Shown piece by piece: positions 7,096 through 41,388 of a DNA stretch of 64,000 nucleotides. The notes beneath the pieces are model-generated. The model saw only the letters and a program-made list of their open reading frames with translations. It ran no database searches and was not told the DNA's origin. Origin of the DNA: a candidate division WOR-3 bacterium (GTDB lineage: Bacteria; Hydrothermota; Tepidihabitantia; Tepidihabitantales; Tepidihabitantaceae); contig JBBISL010000005.1 of the NCBI GenBank assembly GCA_037441285.1, positions 28,869 through 92,868 of the forward strand, read 5' to 3'. Position numbers and translations under genes: made by a program. How positions within the stretch are numbered: position 1 is the first letter of the stretch; each line of letters starts with the position of its first letter.

Positions 7096-7334
7096 TTTAC
7101 CTCCTTCTTGTAGGATATTTTAGCAAAAGCGTTTTATCTGTCAATAAAGTTGCCAACAGGTTCTGGTTTCAGGTTTAGAAAGGGCGTCTTGAAAAGAGGC
7201 AGGGCATTTTGTCGGGCGGCATGCGGCGCAATTTTAGGGATTAGAAAAACTTGACAAAAGCGGGAAATCTGGCAAAATAAATAAAGGAGGGAATCGGGGT
7301 TTTTATGGTATTAGAATTAAGAAAGGAGGTTAGG

Positions 7335-10552: not shown

Positions 10553-12210
10553 TCGAGAATCGCCTTCAGGTCTTCTTCGGGTGTTGCGATCGGCGTTAGA
10601 TTAAATTTGTCCACAAGTATCTGAACAATCCCGGGCGTGAGAAATGCGGGTAGCGACGGTCCGAGACGGATGTTTTTGATGCCGAGATAGAGCAGGGTCA
10701 AAAGCACCGCTACCGCCTTTTGTTCATACCAGGAAAGGATTAGCGAGAGCGGAAGTTCGTTTGGGTTGACTCCGAGCGACTTGCTTAAGGCGATGATAAA
10801 CTGGATTGCCGAGTAACTGTCGTTGCATTGGCCCACATCCCAGAGCCGGGGCAGACCTTCAATCGTCCCGAACTCCAGTTTGTTGAACCGGTACTTACCG
10901 CAGGCAAGGGTTAAGATAAGACATTCGTTCGGGACGAGCTGGGCGAACTGGGTGAAGTAGTTCCTGCCCGGTTTTGCACCGTCACAGCCACCAATCAGAA
11001 AGATGTGACGCAGGCGCTGCGATTGAATCAGTTCGGTTATTTCGTCCACTTTGCTTAACAGGGTGTTGCGGCCAAAGCCCACGGTAATGTAATGCTCGGC
11101 ACCCTCAGTGCCAAATCCGGGTTGGGCAAGTGCCGCTTCAATCACCGGGGAAAAGTCATCGCGGTGCACATGACGCACCCCGGGCCAGGCAACGAGTCCG
11201 GATGTAAAGATGCGGTCTTTGTAACTCTCCTGAGGCCGCTGGATACAGTTGGTGGTCATCAGAATCGCACCGGGGAAGAGCGGGAACTCCTTTTGCTGGT
11301 TCTGCCAGGCAGAGCCGTAGTTGGCCACGAGGTGTTTGTAGGCTTTAAGTTTGGGATAGCCATGAGCCGGCAGCATTTCCCCATGGGTGTAGATGTTGAT
11401 ATTTTTGTCTTTGGTCTGCTCAAGGAGGGCGGCGAGGTCACGCAGGTCATGACCGGAGACACAGATTGCTTTGCCCCGCACCGGGGTAATCCGAACCCGG
11501 GTTGGAACTGGCTCGCTATAGTTTAAGGTGTTTGCCAAATCAAGCAGTTCGGTTACGCTCAGATTGAGTGCGCCGACCGCTAAGGCGTTATTTAACAGTT
11601 CCTGGGTGTCAAACTGGTCCCGCGTCAGGTAGTCAAGTAGTTCGTGAAACCGGGCGTAGAGCCGGTCGTCTTCTTTGCCCAGAATCGCAGCATGGTCGGT
11701 ATAGGCGGCAGCGCCTTTAAGACCGAAGAGGATGAGGTCCATCAGGTCGGCTTGTTCGTCGCCAAAGCGCGCGTGCCGGCTGAGGATGCCGGCCTTTTTG
11801 CCCTGTGCGATGAGGCCATCAATATCAGGCGCCGGAGTCCAGCTGGCAGGTCCAGAAAGGGTTTCCGGTTGAACCCCTTTAGTTCGGCAGGCGTCAAGGT
11901 AAAGTTTTTGTGCCCGAGCCTTTAAATCAGCGGCACGGAACAGAAGCCCTTTCAATCTTTCCGGGTCAAAGTCCACATTGGTGATGGTGGAAAACAGCGC
12001 CTCAACCGTAAACAGGTTGATTTCGCAGTCGGTGGCACCCAAACGCCGGGCACGGTGCGCAAACTGGGCGATGCCTTCGGTCGCGTAGATTAACAGGTCC
12101 TGCAAGGTTGCGGTCGTCGGGTCTTTGCCACAGACTCCCTGAGTTGTGCAACCGGTACCGCCTTTGGTCTGTTCACATTGATAACAGAACATCTTTACTT
12201 CTTCATTCAT
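10549..12210 (-). CDS. hcp: Hybrid cluster protein (hydroxylamine reductase)
   Basis: N-terminus MFCYQCEQTKGGTGCTTQGVCGK is the canonical Hcp cysteine motif. Full length is 553 aa with the conserved C-terminal Cys/His/Glu ligands region. Confidence 0.9.
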   Translation of the reverse strand: MNEEVKMFCYQCEQTKGGTGCTTQGVCGKDPTTATLQDLLIYATEGIAQFAHRARRLGATDCEINLFTVEALFSTITNVDFDPERLKGLLFRAADLKARAQKLYLDACRTKGVQPETLSGPASWTPAPDIDGLIAQGKKAGILSRHARFGDEQADLMDLILFGLKGAAAYTDHAAILGKEDDRLYARFHELLDYLTRDQFDTQELLNNALAVGALNLSVTELLDLANTLNYSEPVPTRVRITPVRGKAICVSGHDLRDLAALLEQTKDKNINIYTHGEMLPAHGYPKLKAYKHLVANYGSAWQNQQKEFPLFPGAILMTTNCIQRPQESYKDRIFTSGLVAWPGVRHVHRDDFSPVIEAALAQPGFGTEGAEHYITVGFGRNTLLSKVDEITELIQSQRLRHIFLIGGCDGAKPGRNYFTQFAQLVPNECLILTLACGKYRFNKLEFGTIEGLPRLWDVGQCNDSYSAIQFIIALSKSLGVNPNELPLSLILSWYEQKAVAVLLTLLYLGIKNIRLGPSLPAFLTPGIVQILVDKFNLTPIATPEEDLKAILD

Positions 12211-13028
12211 TTCTCCTCCTTGATATTACCATCGATACCAAGGGTGATTTCCTTAAATGGGATGTTTTTCCCGCTGGTAGCAAGCGCGTGACGGGCAATT
12301 TGCACCAGGCCATAACAGCAGGGCACCTCCATATGTAAACAGGTTACCGAAAGGATGCTATTCTCCTGGAAGATGCTTGTCAACTTCTCTAAGTAGAACT
12401 GGGCATCGTCCAGTTTGGGACAGGCGATGAGCAGGACCTTACCGGCAAGGAATTCGGGATGAAATGCGGTGCTGGTAAAACCGGTGCAGTCAGCAGCGAG
12501 CAGGAGGTGGGCGTTGTTAAAGTATGGAGCATGGACTGGGACAAGGGTTAACTGAATGGGCCAGGTGGTGAGCTGTGATTCCGGGCGAGTGGTATCAGGT
12601 GCCGGTTTTTCTTTTGGTGTCAGACGGCGTACCTGAGTGCCCGGGCAACCACAGGCAAGCGCCGGTTTTTCGTCTGGTATCGGGATGTCGTGTTCTTTCA
12701 GGTAGGCGATTGCTTCCTCATAAAATTTCTGGGCACCGTGCTCTTTTAAGTGCTTAAGATGGGCGCGGATGGTATTGGCACCGGCGCGCACGATATTCCC
12801 CATCACCTTTCGTTCATCATAGGGTTCGGCAGGTCGTTCTTCAATGGTGAGCGCGCCCTCTGGACAGGTGCCAACACAGGCACCCAAACCATCACAAAAC
12901 AGGTCAGAAATCAGCCGTGCCTTGCCGTCAATTACCTGCAGCGCACCTTCCGGGCAGTTGGGGATACAAAAACCACAGCCCGTGCACTTTTCTTCATCAA
13001 TACGGATTATTTTTCTTGTCTTCTTCAT
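12207..13028 (-). CDS. 4Fe-4S dicluster ferredoxin-domain protein (Hcp-associated redox partner)
   Basis: Two CxxCxxCxxxCP motifs (CTGCGFCIPNCP, CDGLGACVGTCP). Its stop overlaps the hcp start by 4 nt (ATGA), indicating translational coupling. Confidence 0.7.
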   Translation of the reverse strand: MKKTRKIIRIDEEKCTGCGFCIPNCPEGALQVIDGKARLISDLFCDGLGACVGTCPEGALTIEERPAEPYDERKVMGNIVRAGANTIRAHLKHLKEHGAQKFYEEAIAYLKEHDIPIPDEKPALACGCPGTQVRRLTPKEKPAPDTTRPESQLTTWPIQLTLVPVHAPYFNNAHLLLAADCTGFTSTAFHPEFLAGKVLLIACPKLDDAQFYLEKLTSIFQENSILSVTCLHMEVPCCYGLVQIARHALATSGKNIPFKEITLGIDGNIKEEK

Positions 13029-27891: not shown

Positions 27892-28875
27892 GTGAAGGTT
27901 AAAGCGGTCTCGTTACTATCAGGCGGGCTGGACTCCATCCTTGCCTGCCGGGTGATACTGGACCAAGGGGTTCAGGTTTTTGGCTTAAACTTTGTCAGTC
28001 CGTTTTGCACCTGTACGAAAAAGGGGTGTCGGCATGAGGCGCGCCGCGCTGCGGAGCAACTCGGGATTCCTTTGAAGGTGGTGGCAAAGGGTGAAGAGTA
28101 CATCCAGATGATAAAGAAGCCCCGGCACGGTTACGGCTCGGCAATGAACCCGTGCATCGACTGCCGGATTTTTACCTTTGCGCGGGCAAAGGAGTATATG
28201 GAGGAGATTGGCGCCCAGTTTGTGTTCACGGGTGAGGTTTTAGGCGAAAGGCCTATGTCCCAGCATCTGCAGGCGTTGAAGTTGATTGAACGGGAGTCCG
28301 GGCTGCAGGGCAGGGTTTTGCGGCCGCTCTCGGCAAAACTGCTGGAGCCCACAGTCCCGGAAATTGAAGGTTGGGTTGACCGGCAGAAACTGCTCGCGAT
28401 TCAGGGACGGTCGCGCAAGCCCCAGATTGCGCTTGCTGCCCATTACGGTATCAAAGATTATCCCTGTCCTGCGGGTGGTTGCCTTTTAACCGATAAAAAC
28501 TTTGCCCAGCGGCTGAAAGATGCGTTTGCCCATAATGAAGACAGTCTGCGTGATATGAATCTGTTAAAGGTGGGCAGGCACTTCCGGCTGCCTTCCCGCC
28601 GAAAGGTGGTTGTGGGCAGAAATGAGATGGAGAACAGGGTGCTCACCAATCTAATTGATGCCAATGATGTTGTGATTGAGCCGGTTGATGTTGCGGGACC
28701 GGTGGTGGTTGTCTGGCAGGGAGGTGATGATAAAGATGTTGAGGTTGCTGCCCGGCTTTGCGCCCGGTACTCGGACGGCAAAAGCCTGCCCCGCTTAAAG
28801 GTGCGGGCTGGTAGACGGGTTTTTGAGGTGGCACCGCTTGAAGAGGAAGCGACCCAGGCGTTGCGGGTCGGCTGA
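27892..28875 (+). CDS. PP-loop ATP pyrophosphatase, ThiI-like AANH domain (tRNA sulfurtransferase-like)
   Basis: SLLSGGLDS PP-loop. TGEVLGERPMSQHLQALKLIE...RVLRPL matches the ThiI catalytic-domain pattern. Cysteine pairs NPCIDC and YPCPAGGC. Confidence 0.5.
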   Translation: MKVKAVSLLSGGLDSILACRVILDQGVQVFGLNFVSPFCTCTKKGCRHEARRAAEQLGIPLKVVAKGEEYIQMIKKPRHGYGSAMNPCIDCRIFTFARAKEYMEEIGAQFVFTGEVLGERPMSQHLQALKLIERESGLQGRVLRPLSAKLLEPTVPEIEGWVDRQKLLAIQGRSRKPQIALAAHYGIKDYPCPAGGCLLTDKNFAQRLKDAFAHNEDSLRDMNLLKVGRHFRLPSRRKVVVGRNEMENRVLTNLIDANDVVIEPVDVAGPVVVVWQGGDDKDVEVAARLCARYSDGKSLPRLKVRAGRRVFEVAPLEEEATQALRVG

Positions 28876-28906
28876 TTCAGGCTGCCAATTAAGACATCTG
28901 CATATA

Positions 28907-28934
28907 TTGCAAGGGGTTAGAGATTTGGTATAAT
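28907..28934 (+). promoter_or_regulatory. Sigma70 promoter TTGCAA-16-TATAAT giving a leaderless transcript for 28942
   Basis: Perfect TATAAT at 28929-28934 lies 7 nt before the ATG at 28942. No SD is present. Confidence 0.45.
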
Positions 28935-28941
28935 TTATTAG

Positions 28942-29493
28942 ATGAGGGCGGTCCAGTTTAGTGTTGTCAGTTTCCCTAAATTACAACAGGATAAGGAACT
29001 TTTGCGATTGCGGGAGCGGTTTGCGCCCGGGATATTTCAACTGGAGCCGCACATTCCGGTGGTTTTGCCCTGGGTGCCGGTTGCGTTGGGTGATGTGGTT
29101 ACAATGGTAAACTGTTTGAGTGAGACCCGAAGGAAGTTACACCCCATTGCGATTGTGTGCGACAACTGGCACCGCCAGGGTGAACTCCTGCTTGGTGATG
29201 TAACCCAGGGACAGGAGGCGGTGCTGGAGTTGAGAAAAAGTATCACCGGTATCGAGCCGGTCCCTTTAATAAATGATGAAGCGTCCCGGGGTGTGTATCT
29301 TGTGGTTTGCCGGGTTCCAGAAGAGGAGAAATGGGATTCTCTACTTAAAGAGGTGCAAACTGTGGGCAGAAGTTTAGGGGTGGTTGATTCGGTGGTGCTG
29401 CTCCGCACCCTGCCGGACGGTTCGTGGCAGCGGGTGGCAAACTTTCCTTTTGGTGTCGGCAGGGTCGATTTTTACGAGCAACTGGTGGGATAA
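28942..29493 (+). CDS. Hypothetical protein (183 aa)
   Basis: Leaderless ATG. No family recognised. There is a weak resemblance to 2H-phosphoesterase-size proteins, but the motifs are not convincing. Confidence 0.35.
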   Translation: MRAVQFSVVSFPKLQQDKELLRLRERFAPGIFQLEPHIPVVLPWVPVALGDVVTMVNCLSETRRKLHPIAIVCDNWHRQGELLLGDVTQGQEAVLELRKSITGIEPVPLINDEASRGVYLVVCRVPEEEKWDSLLKEVQTVGRSLGVVDSVVLLRTLPDGSWQRVANFPFGVGRVDFYEQLVG

Positions 29494-29661
29494 AGACCAA
29501 ACTGTTTTGTTCCAGAAAAGCCAATTCTGAACACAAAAGTCCAGCGTCCGTAATTTCCTAACACAACAACTCGTTGACAATTAGTTACTTACAATCTTGG
29601 CACACCGGTTGTAATTATATCGGGTGATGGCAAGTAGAATTAAAAAAACAGGAGGTCAAAA

Positions 29662-30549
29662 ATGAAGAAACTGCTTGCGTTCGTTATAATCGGAACCCTG
29701 GTCGGCATTGGATTTGCCGGCACCGGCGGTATCGCGGGAAGGGTATTCAATGTCGCTACCGGTCAGCCTGTCGTCAATGCGATTGTTACCGCTTGCGGCG
29801 ACAGTACGCCCGCAGGCAGGGCGGTGACCAATGAACAGGGCGAGTACCTGATAGAAGGTTTAGATGCAGGGAGTTATCAGGTGATAGCCCGAGCAAGGGG
29901 TTTTGTTCCGGCTCACGCTCCGATTCTGGTGGTGGTGCGGGAGGGCAGTATCACCCGGGGTGTTGATTTGCGGTTAAGGCCCTTGCCCAGACGCACTGGA
30001 GCGATTAGCGGTAGAGTTGTAGACCGTGTCACCCGGGAGCCTTTGCGGGGTGCGGTGGTGATTGTGCGCAATCCGTTGGGCACCCGTCGGGCACGAACCG
30101 ACCGTAACGGTTACTACATCATTCGCGGATTGGTTCCGGGAAGGTATCAGGTGGCGGCAAAGGCACGGCGCTACTTTGGTGAGGCGTATCCCCAGCCGGT
30201 TGAGGTAATTCAGGGCGTGGTTACAGAATATATAAACTTTGCCCTGCAACCCAAGCCCCGGCGTGGTGGAATTTCCGGTCAGGTGGTTAATGCGAAGACG
30301 GGCAGGCCCATCGCTGGAGTTCTGATTACCGTTCAGGGTTTGCAGGGTAACGGTTTTGCCCGGACCGATGGCCATGGGTTTTACCGGATTGTGGGTCTTG
30401 AGCCCGGTCGGTATACGGTTTCGGCGACTAAGCCCGGTTATCAGGCGGCGACATATCCCGAGCCGGTTGAGGTCAATCCCGGTGAGTTAACCCGGGGCAT
30501 TGACTTCCGGCTGCGACCGTTGCGTGATAATCAGATTGACAGCGACTGA
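29662..30549 (+). CDS. Secreted protein with three tandem carboxypeptidase-regulatory-like (CarbopepD_reg/Cna-B-like) domains
   Basis: Signal peptide present. Three ~95-aa repeats of the form G-RV-D-x-TG-PL-GA-V-(..)-T-x-NG-Y-I-GL-PG-Y-V-A-x-GY-(..)-PV-V-x-G-x-T-x-x-F-LRPL. Confidence 0.6.
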   Translation: MKKLLAFVIIGTLVGIGFAGTGGIAGRVFNVATGQPVVNAIVTACGDSTPAGRAVTNEQGEYLIEGLDAGSYQVIARARGFVPAHAPILVVVREGSITRGVDLRLRPLPRRTGAISGRVVDRVTREPLRGAVVIVRNPLGTRRARTDRNGYYIIRGLVPGRYQVAAKARRYFGEAYPQPVEVIQGVVTEYINFALQPKPRRGGISGQVVNAKTGRPIAGVLITVQGLQGNGFARTDGHGFYRIVGLEPGRYTVSATKPGYQAATYPEPVEVNPGELTRGIDFRLRPLRDNQIDSD

Positions 30550-30569
30550 ACCCGTTCCGGATTTTAATC

Positions 30570-30612
30570 ATTACCCTCTGGTGCGATGCCACCAGAGGGT
30601 AATCTTTTTGTT
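30570..30612 (+). terminator. Rho-independent terminator
   Basis: Perfect 14-bp stem ATTACCCTCTGGTG / CACCAGAGGGTAAT with a 6-nt loop, followed by CTTTTTGTT. Confidence 0.6.
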
Positions 30613-30696
30613 GACAAAATCTCCTACGGTTTTATGCTTTAATGACAAATCGGGTTACATCCCAGGATAATTTTAATAAGTTGCCAAGGAGGTGTC

Positions 30697-33600
30697 GTGA
30701 AAAAAGTTCTGGTTTTACTCTTGCTGGGGTTTTTGCTCGCCGGGGCAGAAGAGGGCGCGCGCTATTTGATTGTTGCCCCGGATTCGTTCGTTTCTGCCGC
30801 TTTTCCCCTTGTCCACTGGAAGACCGCAAAAGGGATGCTCGCAAAGGTTGTGCCGACGAGCGAAACCGGAACCGACACCGCCTCAATTCGCAGTTACATT
30901 CGCTATGCCTGGAACAACTGGGACATTCCACCCGAATATATTTTGCTTCTGGGTGGTCCGACTCATATCCCGAGCCTCAACTACAACAACGACAACTACT
31001 ACGGCGATATGACCGGCAATTACTTGATGGAAATCCCGGTGGGAAGATTTCCGGCACAGACGGTGCGCGACTGCAGCACATTTGTTGCCAAGGTCCTGGC
31101 GTATGAAAATCCACCGGCGGACATTGATACGCTCTGGTTTTACAAAGGAACAACCGTGGTTCGGGAAGATGTACCCCCGGACTCTTTTTATCAAAAGGAT
31201 TCGCGGATTTTACGTCAGTACTGGGTGGCGCGGGGTTTTGCCCTGGCAGAGAGTTTGTGCGACCTTTATGGTGACTCGAGTCGGGAGGTGAATGCGGCAG
31301 CGCACGACGGCAGGCTTTTCATCACCTATCGGGGTTCTGGTGTCAGCACCTGGTACTCGCCTTTCAATGCGGTTGATGCCACTGGCTGGGGAAATGGTGC
31401 GAAAATGCCGGTGGTGGTGAGCGGTACCTGTGCGACGATAACTCTGGCACCGGGTGAGTCGATGTATGGTGACCGGTTTGTGCGTGCCGGTTCACCAGGG
31501 GCGCTGGGCGGTGCAATTGCGTTTTTTGGAACAACCCGTGCGGGAAACCACCTTTCCCGGTACCGGAGCGCCTGTTTTCGGGGGTTTTTCCATTCGCTTT
31601 ATGAAGAGGGTGAGTACCGATTGGGAAAGGCGGCGTTGCGCGGTAAGTTCTGGATTGATTCAATTTATGGAGATTCGGTGCGCTATCTTGAATGGAACCT
31701 GTTGGGCGACCCGGAACTCAATGTCTGGACCGGACCGGTAAAAACCTTACAGGTGGCGCACGATTCGGTTGTCCTGCGAAAGCCCCAGAACTTTGTCGTG
31801 ACAGTGCGGGCGGGTGGTGTACCGGTGCCGAATGCGGTGGTCTGTGTCTCAATGGATTCAACCGTTTATGAGTACACGAGCACAAACAGCCAGGGTCAGG
31901 CGATTTTTGAAATCAATCCGGTCAACACCGGCTCACTTCAGATTGTGGTTACGGGTAAAGACCTAAGACCCTATATCGGGAGTTGCGAGGTTATCGCAAA
32001 GGATGTTGCGTGCACAGCGATTCTGGCGCCGGCTGGAGTGGTAGATTCGGGGATGGGTGTGACACCGGTGGTGAAACTTTTCAACTACGGCAGCAGGATG
32101 GAGAGTTATCCGGTGCGGCTCAGAATCGGCACAAATTACTGTCAGGTGGAAACGGTCTATTTTCATCAGCCCACCACCGAAAACGAGTTGATTTTCCCGC
32201 GCTGGTATGCCCGGGAAAGGGGCAGTCTGGTGGTCAGTTGTTCAACCGAACTGATGAACGATGTTGTGCCGGAAAATGACCGGGATACCGGTGCGGTTTT
32301 TGTCCGGGTGCGCGATGTCGCAGTGTCAAGGATTGTGGTGCCGGTGGACCGGTATCCAGCAGGAAGTGTGATTACGCCGGTGGTCGCAGCCCAGAACCCG
32401 GGCAATGTGAATGCGACATATCAGATGTGGTTGACGATTACCAACGCTCAGGGGCAACCGGTTTACACCGCTCAACAGAATGTTGTGAACCAGCCCCCAG
32501 GCGATTCGGAACTGTTTGTTACATTTGCGCCCTGTTCCTTGAACACCGGTGGCAAATGGGCGGTGCGGTGCAGCGTCTATTATCCATTTGACCAGGTGCC
32601 GGCAAACAACATCAAAACCGGTGAGTTCTGGGTGACGCCGGTATGGCAGGCAGGCTGGCACGAGGTGGTGGCGATGCCGGCGGCACCTTCAGGCGCAGCG
32701 GTCAAAGATGGGGGCTGGATTGCGGCAGATGAGAATTCGGGTGTGATTTATGCGGGTAAAGGCAACAAAACAGGCGACTTTTATGCCTATGAGCCGTTTA
32801 CCGACACCTGGCGTATCCTATCGCCGATTTTGCCGGGAAGAGAGGAACGGTTGCCGAAAAAAGGTGCGCGGGGTGTTGCCGATGGTGCGGGAAGGGTGTA
32901 TTTAGTTAAAGGGAATAATAGCCGGGGTTTCTGGTGCTACCACGCAACCGAAGACCGGTGGGAACAGTTATCTGATATTCCGCTGGGTAATAGCGGCAAA
33001 GCGGTGAAGGGCGGGGGCGATATGTTGTATCTATTGAAAAACGACACCGGCTATCTGTACCTGTTAAAAGGTTATTACAGCGATTTCCTGTGTTACAACA
33101 CCGCAACCGGTGAGTGGCGTGTGCTCCCGGATGCGCCGACGGGAAAGTGGAAAGAGGGTTCCTGGCTGGTTTACGACGGCGCTAATAACATCTATGCCCA
33201 TCGGGCAAACAGCGAAGAGTTGTGGGTGTTTGAGATCGAGAGCAACCGCTGGAGCACAACACCCCTGCCGGGCATTCCGCGGCAGAGCACGCGGACCGGT
33301 AAGAGTAAAAAGTCCAAGGATGGAAGTGCGGCGGCGTATTACGACGGTTGTATTTATGCCCTGAAAGGTGGCAATACCGCGGAGTTCTGGTGCTATCGGA
33401 CCACGGAAGCCCGCTGGGAGGAACTTGACACCATTCCCCAGCAGGGTTCTACCGGTAAAAAGAAACGGGTGAAAGCCGGCGGTGATATCGCCCATTTTGG
33501 CGGCGGCGTGTTTTTTGCCCTGAAGGGCAACAAGACCCGGGAACTGTGGCGCTATGTACCAGCAATGGGTTTGGCTTCAGGACCCACAATGCCGCGCTCC

Positions 33601-33891
33601 GGAGTTAGGGGCGAAGCGAGTGACGAAAAGGGGGTTAAGTCAATGCCGACGGTGTCAAGTGTGGCGATGCTCGAGAGATATCGGACCGAACTGGCAAGCG
33701 AGAGCGGTGCAAAAGGCGTCCGGGTCTGGATAGTGGACATTACGGGTCGGGTGGTGGCAGAGATGCATTCAATAAATTCCGGTAAGGCAGAAAAGAGCCC
33801 GATTGGCAGTTTAGCACCCGGTGTTTACTTCTTGCAACTGGAAACCGATGCCGGTTATCGCGGGGTAAAGAAGATAACGGTGGTGCGGTGA
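30697..33891 (+). CDS. Gingipain-like (peptidase C25 family) N-domain + Ig-like linkers + Kelch-like beta-propeller + T9SS C-terminal sorting domain
   Basis: GTG start after an AAGGAGG RBS, then a signal peptide. The N-terminal ~350 aa have C25-like layout (YRGSGVSTW ... VVVSGTCATITL). The C-terminal half is paralogous to 8738-10552. It ends GVYFLQLETDAGYRGVKKITVVR. Confidence 0.55.
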   Translation: MKKVLVLLLLGFLLAGAEEGARYLIVAPDSFVSAAFPLVHWKTAKGMLAKVVPTSETGTDTASIRSYIRYAWNNWDIPPEYILLLGGPTHIPSLNYNNDNYYGDMTGNYLMEIPVGRFPAQTVRDCSTFVAKVLAYENPPADIDTLWFYKGTTVVREDVPPDSFYQKDSRILRQYWVARGFALAESLCDLYGDSSREVNAAAHDGRLFITYRGSGVSTWYSPFNAVDATGWGNGAKMPVVVSGTCATITLAPGESMYGDRFVRAGSPGALGGAIAFFGTTRAGNHLSRYRSACFRGFFHSLYEEGEYRLGKAALRGKFWIDSIYGDSVRYLEWNLLGDPELNVWTGPVKTLQVAHDSVVLRKPQNFVVTVRAGGVPVPNAVVCVSMDSTVYEYTSTNSQGQAIFEINPVNTGSLQIVVTGKDLRPYIGSCEVIAKDVACTAILAPAGVVDSGMGVTPVVKLFNYGSRMESYPVRLRIGTNYCQVETVYFHQPTTENELIFPRWYARERGSLVVSCSTELMNDVVPENDRDTGAVFVRVRDVAVSRIVVPVDRYPAGSVITPVVAAQNPGNVNATYQMWLTITNAQGQPVYTAQQNVVNQPPGDSELFVTFAPCSLNTGGKWAVRCSVYYPFDQVPANNIKTGEFWVTPVWQAGWHEVVAMPAAPSGAAVKDGGWIAADENSGVIYAGKGNKTGDFYAYEPFTDTWRILSPILPGREERLPKKGARGVADGAGRVYLVKGNNSRGFWCYHATEDRWEQLSDIPLGNSGKAVKGGGDMLYLLKNDTGYLYLLKGYYSDFLCYNTATGEWRVLPDAPTGKWKEGSWLVYDGANNIYAHRANSEELWVFEIESNRWSTTPLPGIPRQSTRTGKSKKSKDGSAAAYYDGCIYALKGGNTAEFWCYRTTEARWEELDTIPQQGSTGKKKRVKAGGDIAHFGGGVFFALKGNKTRELWRYVPAMGLASGPTMPRSGVRGEASDEKGVKSMPTVSSVAMLERYRTELASESGAKGVRVWIVDITGRVVAEMHSINSGKAEKSPIGSLAPGVYFLQLETDAGYRGVKKITVVR

Positions 33892-33922
33892 TAAAAGCGG
33901 TGCAGTAAAGGAAGTATTTCAG

Positions 33923-35191
33923 GTGCGGCGGTTCACCATTTATGCGCTGGTATTGACGGTGCTGGTGATTGCGGTTTTCAATGTCCACAGCTGGCTGGTG
34001 CTGTCGCGGAGTCGGGCGGCGCTCGAAGAGGAGTTAGGGAACCGGCTGGAAACGGTGGCAAAGACGATTGCCACGCAGTTGCGAACCCGGGAGTTGACAC
34101 CGGAGCAGGTGCGGGCGCTGAATGAGACGATGAACGAAGCGGACCTGTTCAACATCTTTCTGGTTGACGAGAGTCTGCGCTATGTGTTTAATGTGCGGGA
34201 GCCCGCAGTGGCGGGCAAAACCGACCCGATGCTGGAACTGGATGCAACCGAAATCTTATCCGCTTTCAGCGGGATGCCAAGCCGGACCCGGCTGTTCGCA
34301 GCCGGACCTTACTATCTAAAAACCGCCTATGCGCCGGTTTACCGTGCCGGCGGTACGATTGATGGCGTGCTCGGGGTTGAGGCGGATGCGCGGTTTTTCC
34401 GCAGTCTGACCCTTTACCGCAATTCGCTTTTGTTTGTCAACGGGTTGAGTCTGATAGCACTGGTGGCGCTGGTTCTGGCGCTGCTGAGCATTGCCCGGCA
34501 CGCCCTGAAACTGGAGCAGGCAGCGGCGCGCGCCAGCACATTCGCCCTGCTCGGTGAAATGGCGGCAGCGCTGGCGCACGAAATCCGGAACCCGCTTGCC
34601 ACCATCCTTGCCACAACCGAGCGGCTGAAGATTCGGTACGGAGCAGAAAACGACCCGACATTTGATTACATCCGGGAGGAGGTGGAACGGCTCAATCGGA
34701 CACTGACCAACTATTTGAGCATCGGCTCGGGCAAGCCCGGTGCGATGGAAGAGGTGGACCTGGGCGCACTGATTGGTCAGGTTCTCACCCGAATGGAGGA
34801 GGAGTTGAACCGCAACGGGATACGGATTGAAAATCGGCTGGAACAGTTGCCCAAAGTCCGGGGTTCGGAGTTGCAGTTGCGCCAGGTGTTTATGAACCTG
34901 TTTCTCAATGCGCTGCAGGCACAACCGCAGGGCGGGTTGTTGAGGATTGAGGCAAAAACCGCGGAGAAAGGCGGCAGGCGCTGGTTGGTGGTGCAGGTTA
35001 CCGACCATGGTTCGGGTATACCAAGAGAGTACCAGAGCCGCGTGTTTGAGCCGTTCTTCACGACCAAAGAGAAGGGGAGCGGACTCGGGCTGTTTGTGGT
35101 GCGGCGGATTGTTGAGTTGCATCAGGGTGAAGTGCGGCTGCGCAGTGCGCCGGACAGCGGTACAACGGTGGAGGTGTGGTTGCCGGTATGA
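33923..35191 (+). CDS. Membrane sensor histidine kinase
   Basis: Two TM segments flank a periplasmic domain. H-box AHEIRNPLATI, N/G boxes and GSGLGLFVVRRIV are present. Confidence 0.8.
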   Translation: MRRFTIYALVLTVLVIAVFNVHSWLVLSRSRAALEEELGNRLETVAKTIATQLRTRELTPEQVRALNETMNEADLFNIFLVDESLRYVFNVREPAVAGKTDPMLELDATEILSAFSGMPSRTRLFAAGPYYLKTAYAPVYRAGGTIDGVLGVEADARFFRSLTLYRNSLLFVNGLSLIALVALVLALLSIARHALKLEQAAARASTFALLGEMAAALAHEIRNPLATILATTERLKIRYGAENDPTFDYIREEVERLNRTLTNYLSIGSGKPGAMEEVDLGALIGQVLTRMEEELNRNGIRIENRLEQLPKVRGSELQLRQVFMNLFLNALQAQPQGGLLRIEAKTAEKGGRRWLVVQVTDHGSGIPREYQSRVFEPFFTTKEKGSGLGLFVVRRIVELHQGEVRLRSAPDSGTTVEVWLPV

Positions 35192-36522
35192 AGATTTTAC
35201 TGGTGGACGATGAGCGGCGGTTCTGCGAGATGACCGCGGCAAACCTGCGTGACCTCGGTTATGAGGTGAAGCCGGTTTTCAGTGGTGAAGAGGCGGTCCG
35301 GGTTCTGGAACAGGAGAAGTTTGATGTGGTGATTACCGATTTGAAGATGGTACCGGTGGATGGAATGGCGGTTCTGGCAAAGGCGAAGAGAATAAATCCC
35401 GAAGGCGATGTTGTGGTTATCACCGGTTATGGCACGATTGCGCTGGCGGTGGCGGCGATGAAGCAGGGGGCGTTTGACTTCATCACGAAACCGGTGGCGC
35501 TCGACCACCTCCAGGCGGTACTGGAAAAGATCAGGGAGCACCAGAAGACCAGAGTTGAGAACCGGCAGTTGAAAGAGGAGTTGAAACTGACCAGCCGGTT
35601 TGCCGAACTGGTGGGTGATAGTCCGGCAATAGCAAAGGTCAAGGGTTTGATTGCCAAGGTGGCACAGAGTGACGCCACGGTACTCATCACCGGTGAAAGC
35701 GGCACGGGCAAAGAACTGGTGGCGCGGATGATTCACCGTTTGAGCAACCGGGCGCAAAACCCGTTTGTCGTGATGCATGCCGCGGCGCTGCCTGAGACCC
35801 TGCTGGAGTCGGAGCTTTTTGGCTATGAAAAGGGTGCGTTTACCGGCGCGACGAGCCGAAAATCGGGCCGGCTGGAGCAGGCGCAGGGTGGAACACTATT
35901 TCTGGACGAGATTGGCGAAATCACCTCGTCGTTGCAGGTGAAACTTTTGCGTTTTCTCCAGGACAGAAGTTTTGTTCGGCTGGGCGGCAGAGAGACGATA
36001 ACGGTTGATGCCCGAATTGTTGCGGCAACCAACCGCAATTTGCCCGAAGCGGTGCGTGCGGGCAAATTTCGCGAGGACCTTTACTACCGGCTCGCGGTGT
36101 TTCCAATTCATCTGCCACCTTTGCGTGAGCACAAAGAGGACATTCCGGCGCTTGCCCGGCACATTTTGTCCCGGCTGGGCTATCAACAGGAACTTTCCGA
36201 GGATGTGGTGCAGACATTGCTAAGTTATGACTGGCCCGGTAATGTGCGGGAACTGGAGAATGTGCTGGAGCGGGCGCTGATTTTGTCCGAGAAGGGCGAG
36301 ATAAAACCCCAGTTTATTCAGTTTCCCGAGCCGGTGTTTGCCCGGAAATCGGATTCGGACTCACCCGGTTCCTTATGGGAGATGGAACGCAAGATGGTTG
36401 AAGAGGCGCTGGCGCGGGCAGGCGGCAACAAGTCCAAGGCGGCAAAACTGCTCGGGATTACACGCAGGATGCTCTACACAAAACTGGCAAAGTTCGGGAT
36501 TGAGGCACAGGAGAGCGAGTGA
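35188..36522 (+). CDS. Sigma54-dependent response regulator (NtrC family)
   Basis: REC domain (MKILLVDDE...D54). AAA+ sigma54 activator motifs GESGTGKELVARMIH and ESELFGYEKGAFTGA (GAFTGA). C-terminal Fis-type HTH. The ATG overlaps the kinase stop (ATGA). Confidence 0.9.
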   Translation: MKILLVDDERRFCEMTAANLRDLGYEVKPVFSGEEAVRVLEQEKFDVVITDLKMVPVDGMAVLAKAKRINPEGDVVVITGYGTIALAVAAMKQGAFDFITKPVALDHLQAVLEKIREHQKTRVENRQLKEELKLTSRFAELVGDSPAIAKVKGLIAKVAQSDATVLITGESGTGKELVARMIHRLSNRAQNPFVVMHAAALPETLLESELFGYEKGAFTGATSRKSGRLEQAQGGTLFLDEIGEITSSLQVKLLRFLQDRSFVRLGGRETITVDARIVAATNRNLPEAVRAGKFREDLYYRLAVFPIHLPPLREHKEDIPALARHILSRLGYQQELSEDVVQTLLSYDWPGNVRELENVLERALILSEKGEIKPQFIQFPEPVFARKSDSDSPGSLWEMERKMVEEALARAGGNKSKAAKLLGITRRMLYTKLAKFGIEAQESE

Positions 36523-36610
36523 ACATTTTGAGCCATAAAGGTTCGAAAATGTTCAGTTTGTTGAACCGTCCGAAATGGTTAAGTTACATATTTTCAATGT
36601 GTTTGGATTC

Positions 36611-36626
36611 TGGCACATGGGTTGCT
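36611..36626 (+). promoter_or_regulatory. Sigma54 (-24/-12) promoter TGGCAC-N5-TTGC
   Basis: cTGGCACatgggTTGCt matches the consensus exactly. It lies 23 nt upstream of the ATG at 36649 and directly downstream of the sigma54 activator gene. Confidence 0.6.
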
Positions 36627-36648
36627 TTTGATTAAGGCAGAGGTGGAT

Positions 36649-37665
36649 ATGAAAAGGTTTACGCTACTGATTCTGGTCCTACTGGGCACGGTTCTTGCCC
36701 AGAGTCCGGACAAGGTTCGTGCGGAACTGCAGCGGACCGACGAGGTTATTGAACGGGCACGAGTTGTGGTTGAGCCGTCCGGTAATGAGGAAGCCCGGAC
36801 CGTGCTGAGAAGCGCAGTTGAGATTCAGAACAGCGCCTGGGAGGGGTATCGAGGTCGGCGTTATCGCTGGGCGTTGAGCCGAACCCTGGCGGCAAGGCAG
36901 CGCGCGTGGCAGGCGCTTGATATGGTGGTGAACAACCCGGAGCGGGTCCGGCAGGAGATAGAGCGGACCGCACAGTTGATGCAGGAGGCAGAGCCGCTGG
37001 TCAATCGGATTGAGGACCAGCGGGCGCAGGATTTGTGGCAGATGGCACGTTCGGAGCAGGCAGCGGCGGAAGACAACTATCGTGCCCGGCGCTACCGGAT
37101 GGCGCTGCGGTTCACAATCACCGCGCGCGAGCACATCGGGGCGGCGCTCAAACTGCTCCGGCAGGTACTGGCACCGGAAAGGGTGGAACTGGAACTGGAG
37201 CGGACCGAACGGGTTCAGGAACGGGCAAAGGGCCCGATTCAGGCGGCAAAGAATGTTCGGGCACAGGAGATGTTCCAGCGCGCCCTGGAGTGGCAGGTTC
37301 AGGCACGCAATCGGTTTCGGGAGCGGTTTTTCGGCAGGGCGCTGCGGTTGACCCTGGCGAGCCGGGATTTGACTTTGCGTGCCTGGGTATTGGTCAACAA
37401 GGATGTCAGCCCGGAACTTCTTGAGACTACGCTCAGTGAGACCGAGCGGTTGTTTGATTTGTGGTCTGAACAACTGGAGAAGGAGAAAAGCGGTGAAGCC
37501 CGGAGGTTGCTCTCTGAGGCGCGCAACCACCAGCAGACCGCCCGTGAACTGCAAAAGGCAGGAAAGTTAGCCGCGGCATTGCAGGAGGCGACGCAGGCAC
37601 AGCGGTTGATGAACCGGGCGCTTGAGGTTTTGGAAAGCGGAACACCTGCGCCCGATTCGGAATGA
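36649..37665 (+). CDS. Secreted all-helical protein with four ~75-aa internal repeats
   Basis: Signal peptide MKRFTLLILVLLGTVLAQ. Four Arg/Ala/Gln-rich repeats with a conserved YR-x-RRYR-x-AL-R core. No family recognised. Confidence 0.5.
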   Translation: MKRFTLLILVLLGTVLAQSPDKVRAELQRTDEVIERARVVVEPSGNEEARTVLRSAVEIQNSAWEGYRGRRYRWALSRTLAARQRAWQALDMVVNNPERVRQEIERTAQLMQEAEPLVNRIEDQRAQDLWQMARSEQAAAEDNYRARRYRMALRFTITAREHIGAALKLLRQVLAPERVELELERTERVQERAKGPIQAAKNVRAQEMFQRALEWQVQARNRFRERFFGRALRLTLASRDLTLRAWVLVNKDVSPELLETTLSETERLFDLWSEQLEKEKSGEARRLLSEARNHQQTARELQKAGKLAAALQEATQAQRLMNRALEVLESGTPAPDSE

Positions 37666-38903
37666 TTTACCTCTGGCTTTTAGTCGGGAGCCTTAACCCC
37701 CGGAATGAAATCGGCGTGAGCGGCGACTACTTCGCCCAGCGCTATGTTGTCATTGACACCGTAACGCGGGACACCAGCGCCCTTGACACCGAACTGCGGC
37801 TTTTCTGGGACTTCGGGCTGGAACCAAAGAAAACTGAGAAAATGGAGCGGGGCGAATGGAGCGCCGGCAACGGCGTTGCCTTTTCCACCCGTTCAATTCG
37901 CGACCGGCTCAATTTAAGCGGTACCCTACCGGTCAACTCCTGGCTACAACTGCAGGGTAACTATGACGGTGAACTGCGCTACTACCACCCGGGTTTTTTA
38001 CTGAAGACCGATTCGGTCTCTTATGCCTCTTATCTAAACAACAACCTGAGTCTGGGGGTTGATTTCACCTTGGGGTCAGGCTGGAACTTCAGTCTCAGTG
38101 AAGGGCTGGAACTGCAGCGCTATCTACCCGAAGACAGTTATAACACCAGTTATCTTTTGAATCGGGTTCGGCTCGGTGCCGAGTTGAAGCCGGATGATGG
38201 ACTGTTCTTTATTCTGGTCTATGGTAACAATCGGTTGCTCGTGCCGAGCGCCGACACGAACAACTATGCCGAGCACACCGTTTACGGTGGGGCCGAGGTT
38301 TACACAATGGGCGGCAGCCGGTTCGGGATTGACAACTACTTCACGAGGCGGCGCTATTGGGACCGGTTCCGCTCTTACTGGGAGGAGCATCCGAATGTGA
38401 CCTTTACCCAGGATTTGGGCACCGATTGGGCGCTGACGATTGAGGAGGATTTTCGGTTGACGGAGTTTGATGAGACCACCGCGGTTTATCAAAATCAGGC
38501 GGAGAATCAACTCAGGCTGGAAGCGGAGTGGCGGCTGGGTTCGAGTTTTGCCTTACGGTTTGGACCGCAATGGGAGTTGAGCCGGAATGTCGAGCGTGCG
38601 GATGAGCAGGACTACAACGAATGGGCTCTTTCCCTCGGCGGCGAGGTGTTTACGCGGACCGGGCTTAGTCTGACGATTGAAGACCGGCTGGGCATGCGGC
38701 ACTACATTGCCGCTGATTCCGGATTTCAGTCCGATTACCGATTCAATGAGTTCAATCTGTATGGCAACTGGCAGTTTCTCACCACCCGGCGCGGTGGTCT
38801 GGTTCTCGAAGGGATGATAAACATCGCACCGGAGTGGCACCGCGAGGCGATTGACAACCTTGCGGCGTTCAGTTACTCTTTGGGACTGAAGTTCCAATTC
38901 TGA
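37662..38903 (+). CDS. Outer-membrane beta-barrel protein (hypothetical)
   Basis: 4-nt overlap with the upstream gene. Alternating aromatic pattern. The C-terminus SLGLKFQF ends with Phe, as OM barrels typically do. Confidence 0.45.
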   Translation: MIYLWLLVGSLNPRNEIGVSGDYFAQRYVVIDTVTRDTSALDTELRLFWDFGLEPKKTEKMERGEWSAGNGVAFSTRSIRDRLNLSGTLPVNSWLQLQGNYDGELRYYHPGFLLKTDSVSYASYLNNNLSLGVDFTLGSGWNFSLSEGLELQRYLPEDSYNTSYLLNRVRLGAELKPDDGLFFILVYGNNRLLVPSADTNNYAEHTVYGGAEVYTMGGSRFGIDNYFTRRRYWDRFRSYWEEHPNVTFTQDLGTDWALTIEEDFRLTEFDETTAVYQNQAENQLRLEAEWRLGSSFALRFGPQWELSRNVERADEQDYNEWALSLGGEVFTRTGLSLTIEDRLGMRHYIAADSGFQSDYRFNEFNLYGNWQFLTTRRGGLVLEGMINIAPEWHREAIDNLAAFSYSLGLKFQF

Positions 38904-38977
38904 ACAAGGCGGTTTAGCACCGGCAGCGGATTGGTGACTGTGTTGACAGGGGAGACCTTTCGGCTAAATTTTGAGTA

Positions 38978-39760
38978 ATGGCGCGCCGGATTGCCATCTG
39001 TAATCAAAAAGGCGGCGTGGGCAAAACCACGACCGCGGTTAATCTGGCGGCGGCGCTTGCCCTGCGGAAGCCGCACACCCTTTTGGTTGATATGGACCCG
39101 CAGGCACACGCCACAATTGGGCTGGGGGTGGACCGCAGCAAGGTTCAGGTATCGGTTTACGAAGCTCTGCTGGAAGCCCAGCGCGTTGACGATGCGATTG
39201 TCCATAACCCGTTTCCCGGGATGGATTTACTGCCGGCGACCATCAACCTTGCCGGTGCCGAGGTGGAACTGGTGGATGCGGAACAGCGCGAGTTTCGGTT
39301 GAGTCGGGCGCTCGGCTTAATTGAACCCAAGTACTCGTTTATCATCATTGACTGCCCGCCTTCCCTTTTGCTCTTGACCATCAACAGTTTGACCGCAGCG
39401 CGCGGGGTGATTATCCCGGTCCAGGCGGAGTACTACGCCCTCGAAGGGATGTCAAGACTTTTAGAGACGCTCAATTTGGTGCGCACCAGTCTCAACCCCC
39501 TACTCGAGATTGAGGGGGTGCTCTTGACGATGTTTTCCAGCCGGCTCAACCTCTGTCAGCAGGTGGAGAAGGAGGTGCGGGAGTTTTTCAAGGAGCAGGT
39601 GTTTGACACGGTGATACCGCGCAGTGTCCGACTTGCCGAAGCGCCCAGTTTTGGCAAGCCCATCTTCGCCTACGACGGGCAGTCGGCTGGTGCCCAGTCC
39701 TATCTGGCGCTGGCGGATGAACTGCTTGCCCGCTACGAGAAGAAAGAGGAGGAAAAATGA
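38978..39760 (+). CDS. parA: ParA/Soj chromosome-partitioning ATPase
   Basis: Deviant Walker A KGGVGKTTTAVNLAAALA, with full-length ParA motifs. Confidence 0.9.
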   Translation: MARRIAICNQKGGVGKTTTAVNLAAALALRKPHTLLVDMDPQAHATIGLGVDRSKVQVSVYEALLEAQRVDDAIVHNPFPGMDLLPATINLAGAEVELVDAEQREFRLSRALGLIEPKYSFIIIDCPPSLLLLTINSLTAARGVIIPVQAEYYALEGMSRLLETLNLVRTSLNPLLEIEGVLLTMFSSRLNLCQQVEKEVREFFKEQVFDTVIPRSVRLAEAPSFGKPIFAYDGQSAGAQSYLALADELLARYEKKEEEK

Positions 39761-40635
39761 GCGACAGCGCCCAGGAAAAGCGTCGGGCATTGGGTAAGGG
39801 AATTCGCGCCATCATTCCCGAGCGGACCCAGGCATCGCTGGCAGCGGAGTTCCGGCCCATTCCGGTTGAGGAGATTCGGCCCAACCCGTTTCAGCCCCGG
39901 ACAATGAAGGAGCCAGAAAACGACCCGAAATTTCAGGAACTGGTGGCGTCAATCAAGGAGAAAGGGGTTTTGCAACCGGTGGTGGTGCGCCGGCGCCGGG
40001 ACGGATATGAACTGGTGGCGGGTGAGCGGCGCTGGCGCGCGGCAAAGGCGGCAGGATTGACAACCGTGCCCGCGGTGGTGCGGGCGGTTGAGGACCGGGA
40101 GATGCTGGAGCAGGCGCTGGTGGAAAACCTGCAGCGCGAAGACCTGAACCCGATTGAAGAGGCGCTTGCCTACAAAAAACTGGTCGATGAGTTTCACTTG
40201 ACCCATGAGGAGGTTGCGCGGCGGGTCGGCAAGGACCGCTCCACGGTAACCAATGTGATGCGGCTCTTGACGCTGCCCTTCCGGGTGCGGGATGCGCTTG
40301 CCGCCGGTTTAATCACGCCGGGGCATGCCCGGGCGCTCTTGAGCATCAACAGCCGGCGCGAACAGGTGGAGTTGTGCGAGCGGGTGATAAATGAAGGGCT
40401 GTCGGTGCGGGCACTTGAAGGGTTGTGTGGCGGGGGGAAACGGCGCGTCCGGGTGCAGGAAAAGGAAAAGGATGTCCACATCAAAGAACTGGAAGAGGCG
40501 CTGCAAGCGCTGTTTCAGACCCGGGTCACAATCTTCCCCGCCGCCGGTGAGAAAAAACCGGGCAGGGTGGTGATTGAGTTCTTTTCCGAAGACGACCTGA
40601 ACCGCATTGTCAAAATTCTGAAAAGACAACCGTAA
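39757..40635 (+). CDS. parB: ParB/Spo0J partition protein
   Basis: ParB box GERRWRAA with an HTH, and a C-terminal dimerisation region. 4-nt overlap with parA. Confidence 0.9.
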   Translation: MSDSAQEKRRALGKGIRAIIPERTQASLAAEFRPIPVEEIRPNPFQPRTMKEPENDPKFQELVASIKEKGVLQPVVVRRRRDGYELVAGERRWRAAKAAGLTTVPAVVRAVEDREMLEQALVENLQREDLNPIEEALAYKKLVDEFHLTHEEVARRVGKDRSTVTNVMRLLTLPFRVRDALAAGLITPGHARALLSINSRREQVELCERVINEGLSVRALEGLCGGGKRRVRVQEKEKDVHIKELEEALQALFQTRVTIFPAAGEKKPGRVVIEFFSEDDLNRIVKILKRQP

Positions 40636-41388
40636 GTGGCACGCAAAGAGATTACCGTTTTCATCTTTGGCAACTACACACCCAACTCGCTACGCTTCAG
40701 CCTCTCGCTCGGACTGGCGCGCTTTCTGTTTGTCGTGCTCGTGTTTATGACGGTGATGCTGTTCGTTGCGTTCGGACTCGTGGCGTCCGGGGCGTACCGA
40801 TTCAGCCGGATGGTGTATCTGGCGCGGCGCAACCGGCAACTGGAACAGGAGTTCAAAAAGGTGACGGCGCTCCAAGAGCGGCTCGAGTTTCTTGAAAAGG
40901 AGCGGGAGAAACTGGCAAAGATGCTCGGGGTTGACCTGACACCACCACCGGTGAACTGGCAGACCGGAATGGTTGACTCAGCCGGCGTGCCCGACTGGGT
41001 CAAAAATCAACCCTGGGGCAGTCAACCGCTGCCGGTACTGGTGCCGGTGAGCGGCTATGTGGTCTCACGCGGGGCGAGTGTTGAGCATATGGCGATTGAC
41101 TTTGCCTGCCAGAAAGGCAGTTTAGTGCGGGCAACGGCCGATGGGATTGTTCTGGAAAAGGGGGTTGACAAACAGTTCGGCAGATACCTCCTTTTACGCC
41201 ACGAAAAGGGCTACGACAGTTACTATGGACATCTCGAAAACTGGCTGGTCCAGCGCGGGGACACGGTCAAGGTGGGTGCGATTATCGGTAAGGTCGGGAT
41301 GACCGGACAGGCAAGTGCGCCCCATCTCCACTTTGAAATCAGAAAAAATGGCAAACCGATTGACCCGGCAACGCTCCTGAAACTGTAA
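40636..41388 (+). CDS. M23/LytM-family peptidase with N-terminal TM and coiled coil (EnvC-like)
   Basis: HMAIDFA...GYDSYYGHL...APHLHFEI matches the HxxxD / HxH zinc ligand pattern of M23. GTG start. Confidence 0.8.
   Translation: MARKEITVFIFGNYTPNSLRFSLSLGLARFLFVVLVFMTVMLFVAFGLVASGAYRFSRMVYLARRNRQLEQEFKKVTALQERLEFLEKEREKLAKMLGVDLTPPPVNWQTGMVDSAGVPDWVKNQPWGSQPLPVLVPVSGYVVSRGASVEHMAIDFACQKGSLVRATADGIVLEKGVDKQFGRYLLLRHEKGYDSYYGHLENWLVQRGDTVKVGAIIGKVGMTGQASAPHLHFEIRKNGKPIDPATLLKL

Follow-up and report, generated by a model that had tools for sequence, protein, structure and literature searches.

A two-component system of the NtrC family placed beside a sigma-54 target is a very well-known kind of regulatory unit, and the regulatory part of the locus described here is of that kind. 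The locus lies in a stretch of 64,000 nt from a candidate division WOR-3 bacterium (GCA_037441285.1, contig JBBISL010000005.1, 28,869-92,868 of the forward strand), referred to as the window, within which all coordinates without a locus label are counted. It encodes a sensor kinase, an NtrC-family activator and three exported proteins named HEL (helical protein), BAR (barrel) and CPD (CarboxypepD_reg protein), with two sigma-54-type promoters, P1 and P2. The described system most like it is ZraS-ZraR-ZraP of E. coli and Salmonella, which shares with the locus a kinase with two transmembrane segments and a periplasmic sensor and without HAMP or PAS domains, an NtrC-family activator, and a secreted, all-helical periplasmic protein expressed from a sigma-54 promoter beside the regulator genes (PMC4987338). 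Systems of the AtoS-AtoC and NtrB-NtrC type also resemble it in having regulators beside a sigma-54 target and palindromic enhancer sites about three helical turns apart.

The locus departs from both. Compared with Zra, HEL is unrelated to ZraP/CpxP and consists of 338 aa in four three-helix bundles, the output operon contains the gene of a large outer-membrane barrel as well, and CPD makes up a second sigma-54 unit; the targets follow the regulator genes in the same direction, whereas they are divergent in Zra, and the regulator genes are apparently sigma-70-driven and not autoregulated. The sensor domains are dissimilar, and NCBIfam scores fell far below the ZraS/ZraR equivalog cut-offs (172 vs 479 bits for the kinase, 406 vs 760 bits for the activator). 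The best NCBIfam matches were AtoS/AtoC, also below cut-offs (192 vs 646 bits, 434 vs 714 bits), and the cut-offs of PEP-CTERM PrsK/PrsR (TIGR02916, TIGR02915) were likewise missed (96 vs 300 bits, 412 vs 503 bits). Unlike in AtoSC, the kinase has no PAS or HAMP domain and the outputs are exported envelope proteins rather than catabolic enzymes or transporters. The module as a whole (switch, HEL, BAR and, in WOR-3, CPD with its own sigma-54 promoter) is undescribed in the sources searched, and a literature search on WOR-3 and sigma-54 found nothing. We consider it fairly probable that it is a dedicated sigma-54-dependent two-component switch installing exported envelope proteins. Features are listed in Table 1; related loci carry labels such as L001 and L005, and related proteins labels such as P0012 and P0013.

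The two-component system and the predicted promoters

The kinase has two transmembrane segments around a periplasmic domain of ~140 aa. Its identity to E. coli ZraS (34%) was confined to the second transmembrane segment and the kinase core, and the best hint for the periplasmic domain was a weak match to dCache_1 (E 0.12). The activator has a receiver domain (PF00072, E 1.5e-24) with Asp51 at the place of the ZraR acceptor Asp, a full-length AAA+ domain (PF00158, E 1.1e-70) with an intact GAFTGA motif at 35833, the sole GAFTGA in the window, and a C-terminal Fis-type helix-turn-helix domain (PF02954, E 1e-15); it is 45% identical to E. coli ZraR over its full length. The ATGA overlap of the two genes, read as translational coupling in the initial annotation of this DNA, was confirmed, with the activator ATG at 35188 and the kinase TGA at 35189-35191. 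Kinase and activator are supported as a dedicated NtrC-type two-component system beside a sigma-54 promoter and a two-gene output operon.

The motif used for sigma-54 promoters was TGGCAC-N5-TTGCW, with its GG and GC dinucleotides 10 nt apart. P1, which had been placed 88 nt past the activator stop codon, was recovered there as an exact TGGCACATGGGTTGCT after a stop that ends at 36522, and is the single exact match to the motif in the window. A motif of the same type, with 0-1 mismatches, stands at the same place before HEL in every related locus with enough flank (>20 loci), keeping 8-10 of the 10 core positions in intergenic DNA that is otherwise unalignable, and the BAR proteins of these loci are 33-70% identical to that of the window. 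P1 was taken as real because of this conservation across loci, the exact match alone being marginal. The distance from its -12 element to the HEL start codon was 13-22 nt in every lineage (36626-36649 in the window; 6971-6985 in L005 and L007; 4947-4963 in L022).

As a separate observation, sites with at most one mismatch to TGGCAC-N5-TTGCW were fivefold enriched in the window (12 vs 2.4 expected), and 0 of 100 shuffles reached 12. One-mismatch sites of this set were located at 7970, 8087, 8194, 17786, 18779, 42171, 43196, 48361 (minus strand), 52133 and 53379. Several are inside open reading frames, three of them in an unannotated open reading frame (7305-8711) and one in a solute-binding protein gene conserved in L001 and L013.

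All related loci whose flanks were long enough (>20 WOR-3 loci) share the order kinase-activator-HEL-BAR; they comprise close relatives (L001-L004, L013, L020, L021), loci with ~42% barrel identity (L005-L007, L014, L015, L022, L027, L040) and loci with 33-37% barrel identity (L012, L016, L023, L026, L028, L031-L034). A HEL profile search reached members at 29-32% identity. Three distant lineages, one of them on a 4.58-Mb contig, had the same four genes among unrelated neighbours, with BAR homology detected at E 1.5e-32 or by hhalign (99.3% and 98.8%); on a fourth distant contig (P0012, known from its gene list) kinase, activator and HEL were followed by the contig end. This recurrence in distant and unrelated neighbourhoods indicates that the four-gene unit is a real evolutionary module extending far outside the WOR-3 loci. 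HEL and BAR were accompanied by their own sigma-54 two-component switch in each examined locus that included upstream flank. The WOR-3-type barrel was found in only 4 of 185,579 GTDB species representatives, a scan that understates the range of the wider family because it used two WOR-3-specific peptide patterns.

An upstream activator site had been anticipated within the 3' end of the activator gene; a candidate was found, but it is intergenic and overlaps the activator stop codon. Its half-sites before P1 are TGAAC at 36520 (-91, overlapping the TGA stop), GTTCA at 36551 (-60) and TGAAC at 36562 (-49), and in five lineages the activator stop and P1 are 87-88 nt apart, their intergenic sequence being otherwise unalignable. 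GTNCA started at -60 to -58, anchored on TGGCAC, in 14 of 21 P1 and P2 regions against a background of 0.9% (binomial p 1e-24, a value that overstates the strength since the loci are not fully independent), and a TGA(A/G/C)C word was present near -91 to -96 in most of them. An unbiased count of 5- and 6-mers in -105 to -41 ranked CTGAAC and TGAACA top (p ~1e-7 before correction for ~2,600 words). In L007 an identical 13-mer, TCATTTCGGTTCA, stands at equal offset before P1 and P2. Loci of a second arrangement (L012, L016, L023 and others) have TGTAC-N5-TGCAC at the corresponding offset, and the distant L018 has TGTACC-N4-GGTACA twice, one copy 4 nt past the activator stop and 110 nt upstream of the sigma-54-like site before HEL, the other beside a sigma-54-like site facing a divergent gene for a 365-aa lipoprotein. 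The TGAAC/GTTCA half-sites at both promoters are presented as a candidate activator-binding site. When the combined pattern of upstream site and promoter was searched across the window, P1 alone matched and no further regulon members were found. The BAR stop codon also falls in a TGAACA word (ttcTGAACAagg, 38903-38908), the same hexamer as at the activator stop, which is probably coincidence.

Table 1. Positions of the proposed switch, its promoters and its outputs, followed by the second sigma-54 unit and the peptidase gene
Feature	Position	Strand	Description
Sensor histidine kinase	33923..35191	+	HisKA and HATPase_c (Pfam)
NtrC-family sigma-54 activator	35188..36522	+	REC, Sigma54_activat, AAA_lid_14, HTH_8
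Candidate upstream activator site of P1	36520..36566	+	Shared words at fixed offsets; putative function
Sigma-54 promoter P1, TGGCACATGGGTTGCT	36611..36626	+	Exact TGGCAC-N5-TTGCT, conserved; predicted transcription start near 36637
HEL, secreted 338-aa protein	36649..37665	+	Four three-helix-bundle repeats, no family assignment
BAR, 413-aa outer-membrane beta-barrel	37662..38903	+	~20 strands, no plug, unannotated family
Candidate activator site of P2, palindrome TGAACacaaaaGTCCA	29528..29543	+	GTCCA 59 nt before TGGCAC; putative function
Promoter P2, TGGCACACCGGTTGTA	29598..29613	+	One mismatch: -12 GC is GT
CPD, secreted 295-aa protein	29662..30549	+	Three CarboxypepD_reg beta-sandwich domains (PF13620 x3, E 1.9e-45)
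Intrinsic terminator after CPD	30570..30603	+	14-bp stem and T run
Sigma-70-like promoter, TTGACA-16-TATGCT	30611..30638	+	Consensus match alone; putative function
C25-family peptidase with Kelch repeats	30697..33891	+	Pfam; match to type IX secretion system sorting tail weak, below threshold

The exported proteins and the second sigma-54 unit

The start of HEL was as first annotated, with a ribosome-binding site (GAGGTGG, 36640-36646) and the ATG at 36649. Its standard signal peptide (…VLA/QSPD) is followed by four ~78-aa repeats. In the structure model its 12 helices form four three-helix bundles (predicted local distance difference test score, pLDDT, 87.8). The protein is basic (isoelectric point ~10, net charge about +8) and contains 2 His, 0 Cys and 7 Met. 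The sequence and structure searches proposed earlier for the HEL and BAR products were run, and both output families proved undescribed: neither product matched a Pfam or NCBIfam family above threshold, and neither had a sequence match to a natural solved structure. For HEL, the profile search against sequences of the PDB returned designed helical proteins only and no natural protein, the best Foldseek E-value was 0.36, and no solved structure spanned the four-repeat architecture. Matches to DUF4398 (PA2901, 4fm3) and DUF357 (AF1782, 2oo2) covered one repeat and were generic, designed helical proteins scoring equally well. About 14 relatives were found (90% clusters, 5.8 billion proteins), those with names being from candidate division WOR-3 or labelled 'bacterium'.

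Two known families were considered for HEL and rejected. The initial annotation had suggested a likely envelope-stress or nutrient-responsive module, and this comparison, which served as the test of that idea, came out negative. YfdX (PF10938) scored 15.9 bits against a cut-off of 26.6, with weak matches in 4 of 15 HEL members (best E 9.9e-6), and hhalign against E. coli YfdX gave 0.3%. A relationship to ZraP/CpxP was dismissed on an hhalign value of 0.5% against E. coli ZraP; the LTXXQ/CpxP Pfam family had no match in HEL or 14 relatives. A distant HEL homologue, P0013 (L010 4592-5718; L011 2497-3623), is acidic (isoelectric point 4.6) and has neither a two-component system nor a barrel gene next to it; a sigma-54-like TGGCACGGTTTGTGCT lies 43 nt before its start codon, and one member of its cluster is labelled Zixibacteria.

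The HEL stop and the BAR start overlap in ATGA, as had been claimed, with the BAR ATG at 37662. BAR was modelled as a closed barrel of ~20 strands (pLDDT 77), and its last residue is aromatic, which holds for 14 of 15 relatives too; on the model it has the closed antiparallel fold and C-terminal aromatic beta-signal generic to outer-membrane barrels. BAR is acidic (isoelectric point 4.8, net charge about -19), and the opposition of basic HEL and acidic BAR recurred in nearly all orthologues examined. Its structural neighbours are 22-strand TonB-dependent receptor barrels, OprD/Occ and MtrB porins, at 7-14% sequence identity. Compared with TonB-dependent receptors, BAR has neither a plug nor a TonB box, and is shorter (413 aa, ~20 strands); PF07715 and PF00593, the plug and barrel of these receptors, had no match in BAR or in 52 sampled relatives, which had no Pfam family at all, and a profile search of BAR against PDB sequences gave no match. 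About 14 close relatives were found (90% clusters, 5.8 billion proteins), again named as candidate division WOR-3 or 'bacterium', within a family of 213 clusters at 50% identity (HMMER, 1.84 billion representatives), 31 of them below 1e-30. The most conserved motifs (DETTAVYQN, DSGFQSDYRFNEF and PEWH) map to one face of the barrel, in its longer loops.

Seventeen distant BAR relatives (P0112-P0187, 489-606 aa) carry an N-terminal extension of 90-180 aa with a conserved helical hairpin motif (…RLqRW…eLl.eA..fA..gDYe.A..lLe…), a layout resembling a barrel with a periplasmic helical domain. The extension was considered as a fused HEL, which would be evidence of partnership, and this was set aside as the two are not demonstrably homologous (no hmmsearch match; hhalign 7%).

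CPD is basic (isoelectric point 10.5). Its gene adjoins the cassette in most loci with enough flank, either directly upstream of the kinase gene or, in the other arrangement, directly downstream of BAR, and was not found in L023, L025 and L033. A site equivalent to P2 with 0-2 mismatches precedes the CPD gene in at least 17 related loci, the motif being exact in L005, L007, L012, L014, L022 and L027, and it lies 36-50 nt before the CPD start codon, corresponding to a normal leader of ~25-40 nt. A strong hairpin terminator follows the gene in 7 of 7 lineages examined. CPD was therefore taken as a separate monocistronic sigma-54 unit, since it has its own sigma-54 motif before it and a terminator after it. 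Positive autoregulation by transcription running on from P2 into the kinase gene was rejected because of this terminator.

The C25 peptidase, kinase and activator genes are probably driven by the sigma-70-like promoter, and TTGACC-N16-TAAATT is present between the CPD terminator and the kinase start in L005 and L007. With this promoter past the terminator and only 31 nt between peptidase stop and kinase start, the regulator genes appear to be sigma-70-driven and not autoregulated. The initial annotation had described a self-contained 5-kb cassette; sensor, activator, promoter and two-gene output operon do adjoin one another, but a second sigma-54 unit (29598-30603) lies outside that cassette, and the gap between the peptidase and kinase genes holds neither promoter nor terminator.

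In the distant cassettes of L018 (5088-6406) and L019 (4606-6135) homologous genes for lipoprotein-like proteins of 365-369 aa are divergent from the kinase gene. That of L018 has a sigma-54-like site on the minus strand (cGGCAT-N5-TTGC, 6263) with the same palindrome as at the HEL promoter, and resembles CPD in being an apparent second member of the regulon.

Neighbouring genes

The C25 peptidase gene is not a constant part of the module. It lies between the CPD and kinase genes solely in the lineage of the window (the window and its closest relatives), is absent at this position in L005, L007 and L014, and in L006 is found downstream of BAR (9399-12557) with a sigma-54-like AGGCACCTTGGTTGCA before it at 9347; a C-terminal piece remains in L013 (3749-4228) and L020. 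The module is flanked by a block of a ThiI-like gene and an unannotated 183-aa gene on one side and parA, parB and an M23 peptidase gene on the other (27892-29493 and 38978-41388 in the window). This block is kept in the window and in L001-L004, L007, L013-L015, L020, L022, L027 and L040, and is disrupted in L005, L006 and loci of the second arrangement. Rfam returned no known RNA element in 28800-39200, and a PADLOC scan of HEL and BAR gave no link to defence systems.

Mechanism, competing explanations and meaning

In the proposed mechanism, the membrane kinase would read a periplasmic cue through its periplasmic domain and phosphorylate the activator, which would bind the half-sites at about -60 and -90 relative to the -24 element and, through its GAFTGA loop, open the closed complex of RNA polymerase and sigma-54 at P1 and P2. 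P1 would drive the translationally coupled pair of basic periplasmic HEL and acidic plug-less BAR, with their amounts coupled, and P2 the monocistronic gene of the basic protein with three CarboxypepD_reg domains, from a switch whose kinase and activator would be made constitutively from the sigma-70-like promoter. As the likeliest output, BAR would be an outer-membrane channel induced by the signal, and HEL the helical protein working with it in the periplasm. We infer the use of these sites by the activator, the nature of the signal and the cargo of the barrel; the roles of partner and channel were assigned because of the constant pairing of HEL and BAR, their translational coupling and opposite charge, the large plug-less barrel and its conserved loop motifs. 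The module fits two published generalisations, that sigma-54, nearly universal among diderms, governs parts of the cell exterior (PMC3162934), and that a cultured WOR-3 strain is diderm (PMC12285271).

Several observations weigh against this reading. At P1, an exact motif match is expected 0.09 times by chance, and 8 of 100 shuffles contained at least one (p ~0.08); the predicted HEL mRNA leader is only ~3-12 nt, and in some lineages (L005, L007) a Shine-Dalgarno-like sequence lies upstream of the predicted transcript start, implying nearly leaderless translation. At P2 of the window, GT replaces the near-invariant -12 GC. The half-sites differ in orientation and spacing between lineages, which makes the binding-site model loose, and a hairpin upstream of P1 could simply terminate the activator transcript. 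A six-frame translation of the 64-kb window contained no RpoN box. The BAR N-terminus (MIYLWLLVGSL) is a short hydrophobic stretch with no basic n-region, kept in relatives, that would make an atypical signal peptide, and the first strand of the barrel was modelled at low confidence. A complex of HEL and BAR is, moreover, a presumption of the reading.

The nearest competitor is an envelope-stress loop like Zra or Cpx, in which HEL would be a chaperone and/or a feedback modulator that attaches to the periplasmic domain of the kinase in the way ZraP does to ZraS, and BAR a secondary stress-induced porin. The likeness of the activator to ZraR (45% identity) and the ZraS-like kinase architecture speak for it, and ZraP too is a sigma-54-driven periplasmic helical protein beside its two-component system (PMC4987338). 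The distant lineages also favour it: HEL still follows the kinase and activator genes in 4 of 4 examined, CPD being absent from the three of them with DNA and BAR having diverged much further than HEL from its WOR-3 relatives; the weak matches of 4 of 15 HEL members to YfdX, a stress-linked periplasmic protein with chaperone-like activity (PMC4941729, PMC6394985), point the same way. What makes such a loop unlikely is that HEL shows no homology to ZraP (0.5%) or YfdX (0.3%) and no LTXXQ/CpxP match, that it is poor in the usual soft-metal ligands, that a sigma-70-like promoter takes the place of zraSR-type sigma-54 autoregulation of the regulator genes, and that tight coupling to a large barrel and a third co-regulated secreted protein are foreign to Zra and Cpx.

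Two further alternatives concern the DNA between activator and HEL. The inverted repeat after the activator stop could be an intrinsic terminator of the kinase-activator transcript, with the real enhancer elsewhere or unneeded: RNA of 36505-36610 can form an ~18-bp stem with GUUUGUU after it (-29 kcal/mol, z -3.2), and L001 has a similar fold. The hairpin is not conserved in L005, L006, L014, L015 and L027, so that a terminator role would be at most additional and lineage-specific, whereas the half-sites and the promoter offset are retained there. The same words also stand at equal offset before P2; there the preceding stop lies at varying distance and belongs to different genes in the two arrangements. 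The terminator scan gave no call at the repeat. The two roles are compatible with each other. We hold this explanation to be distinctly improbable. Finally, P1 might be inactive or irrelevant, HEL and BAR being expressed by read-through from the sigma-70-like promoter and the activator serving other targets in the genome. The absence of a strong conserved terminator between the activator gene and HEL would suit read-through, as would the very short predicted P1 leader. It is nevertheless scarcely credible in view of the retention of the P1 core positions in >20 loci, the constrained spacing of P1 to the start codon, and the sigma-54-like site 43 nt before the start codon of the orphan HEL homologue, which has no two-component system.

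Within the preferred reading of a dedicated switch for envelope proteins, a more specific and tentative idea is that HEL and BAR, joined by CPD in WOR-3, may be an unrecognised outer-membrane machine, a plug-less barrel of ~20 strands, gated or served by a periplasmic rod of four three-helix bundles and acting in uptake, export or surface display of a specific substrate. If this is true, the helical extension at the N-terminus of some distant barrel relatives would make these proteins fused forms of the same design.

The standard regulatory logic of the switch gives a reliable handle on two uncharacterised protein families, BAR belonging to a family without a Pfam model and HEL to one in which no relative is solved or annotated. 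The switch, both promoters and a candidate binding site are now defined, so that the module could be rebuilt in a sigma-54 host, which would be a route to screening for the inducing signal and for the function of the outputs. Few envelope systems of WOR-3 and neighbouring uncultured lineages can be approached by experiment, and this would be among them; it is also a further instance of the broader association of sigma-54 with the cell exterior (PMC3162934).

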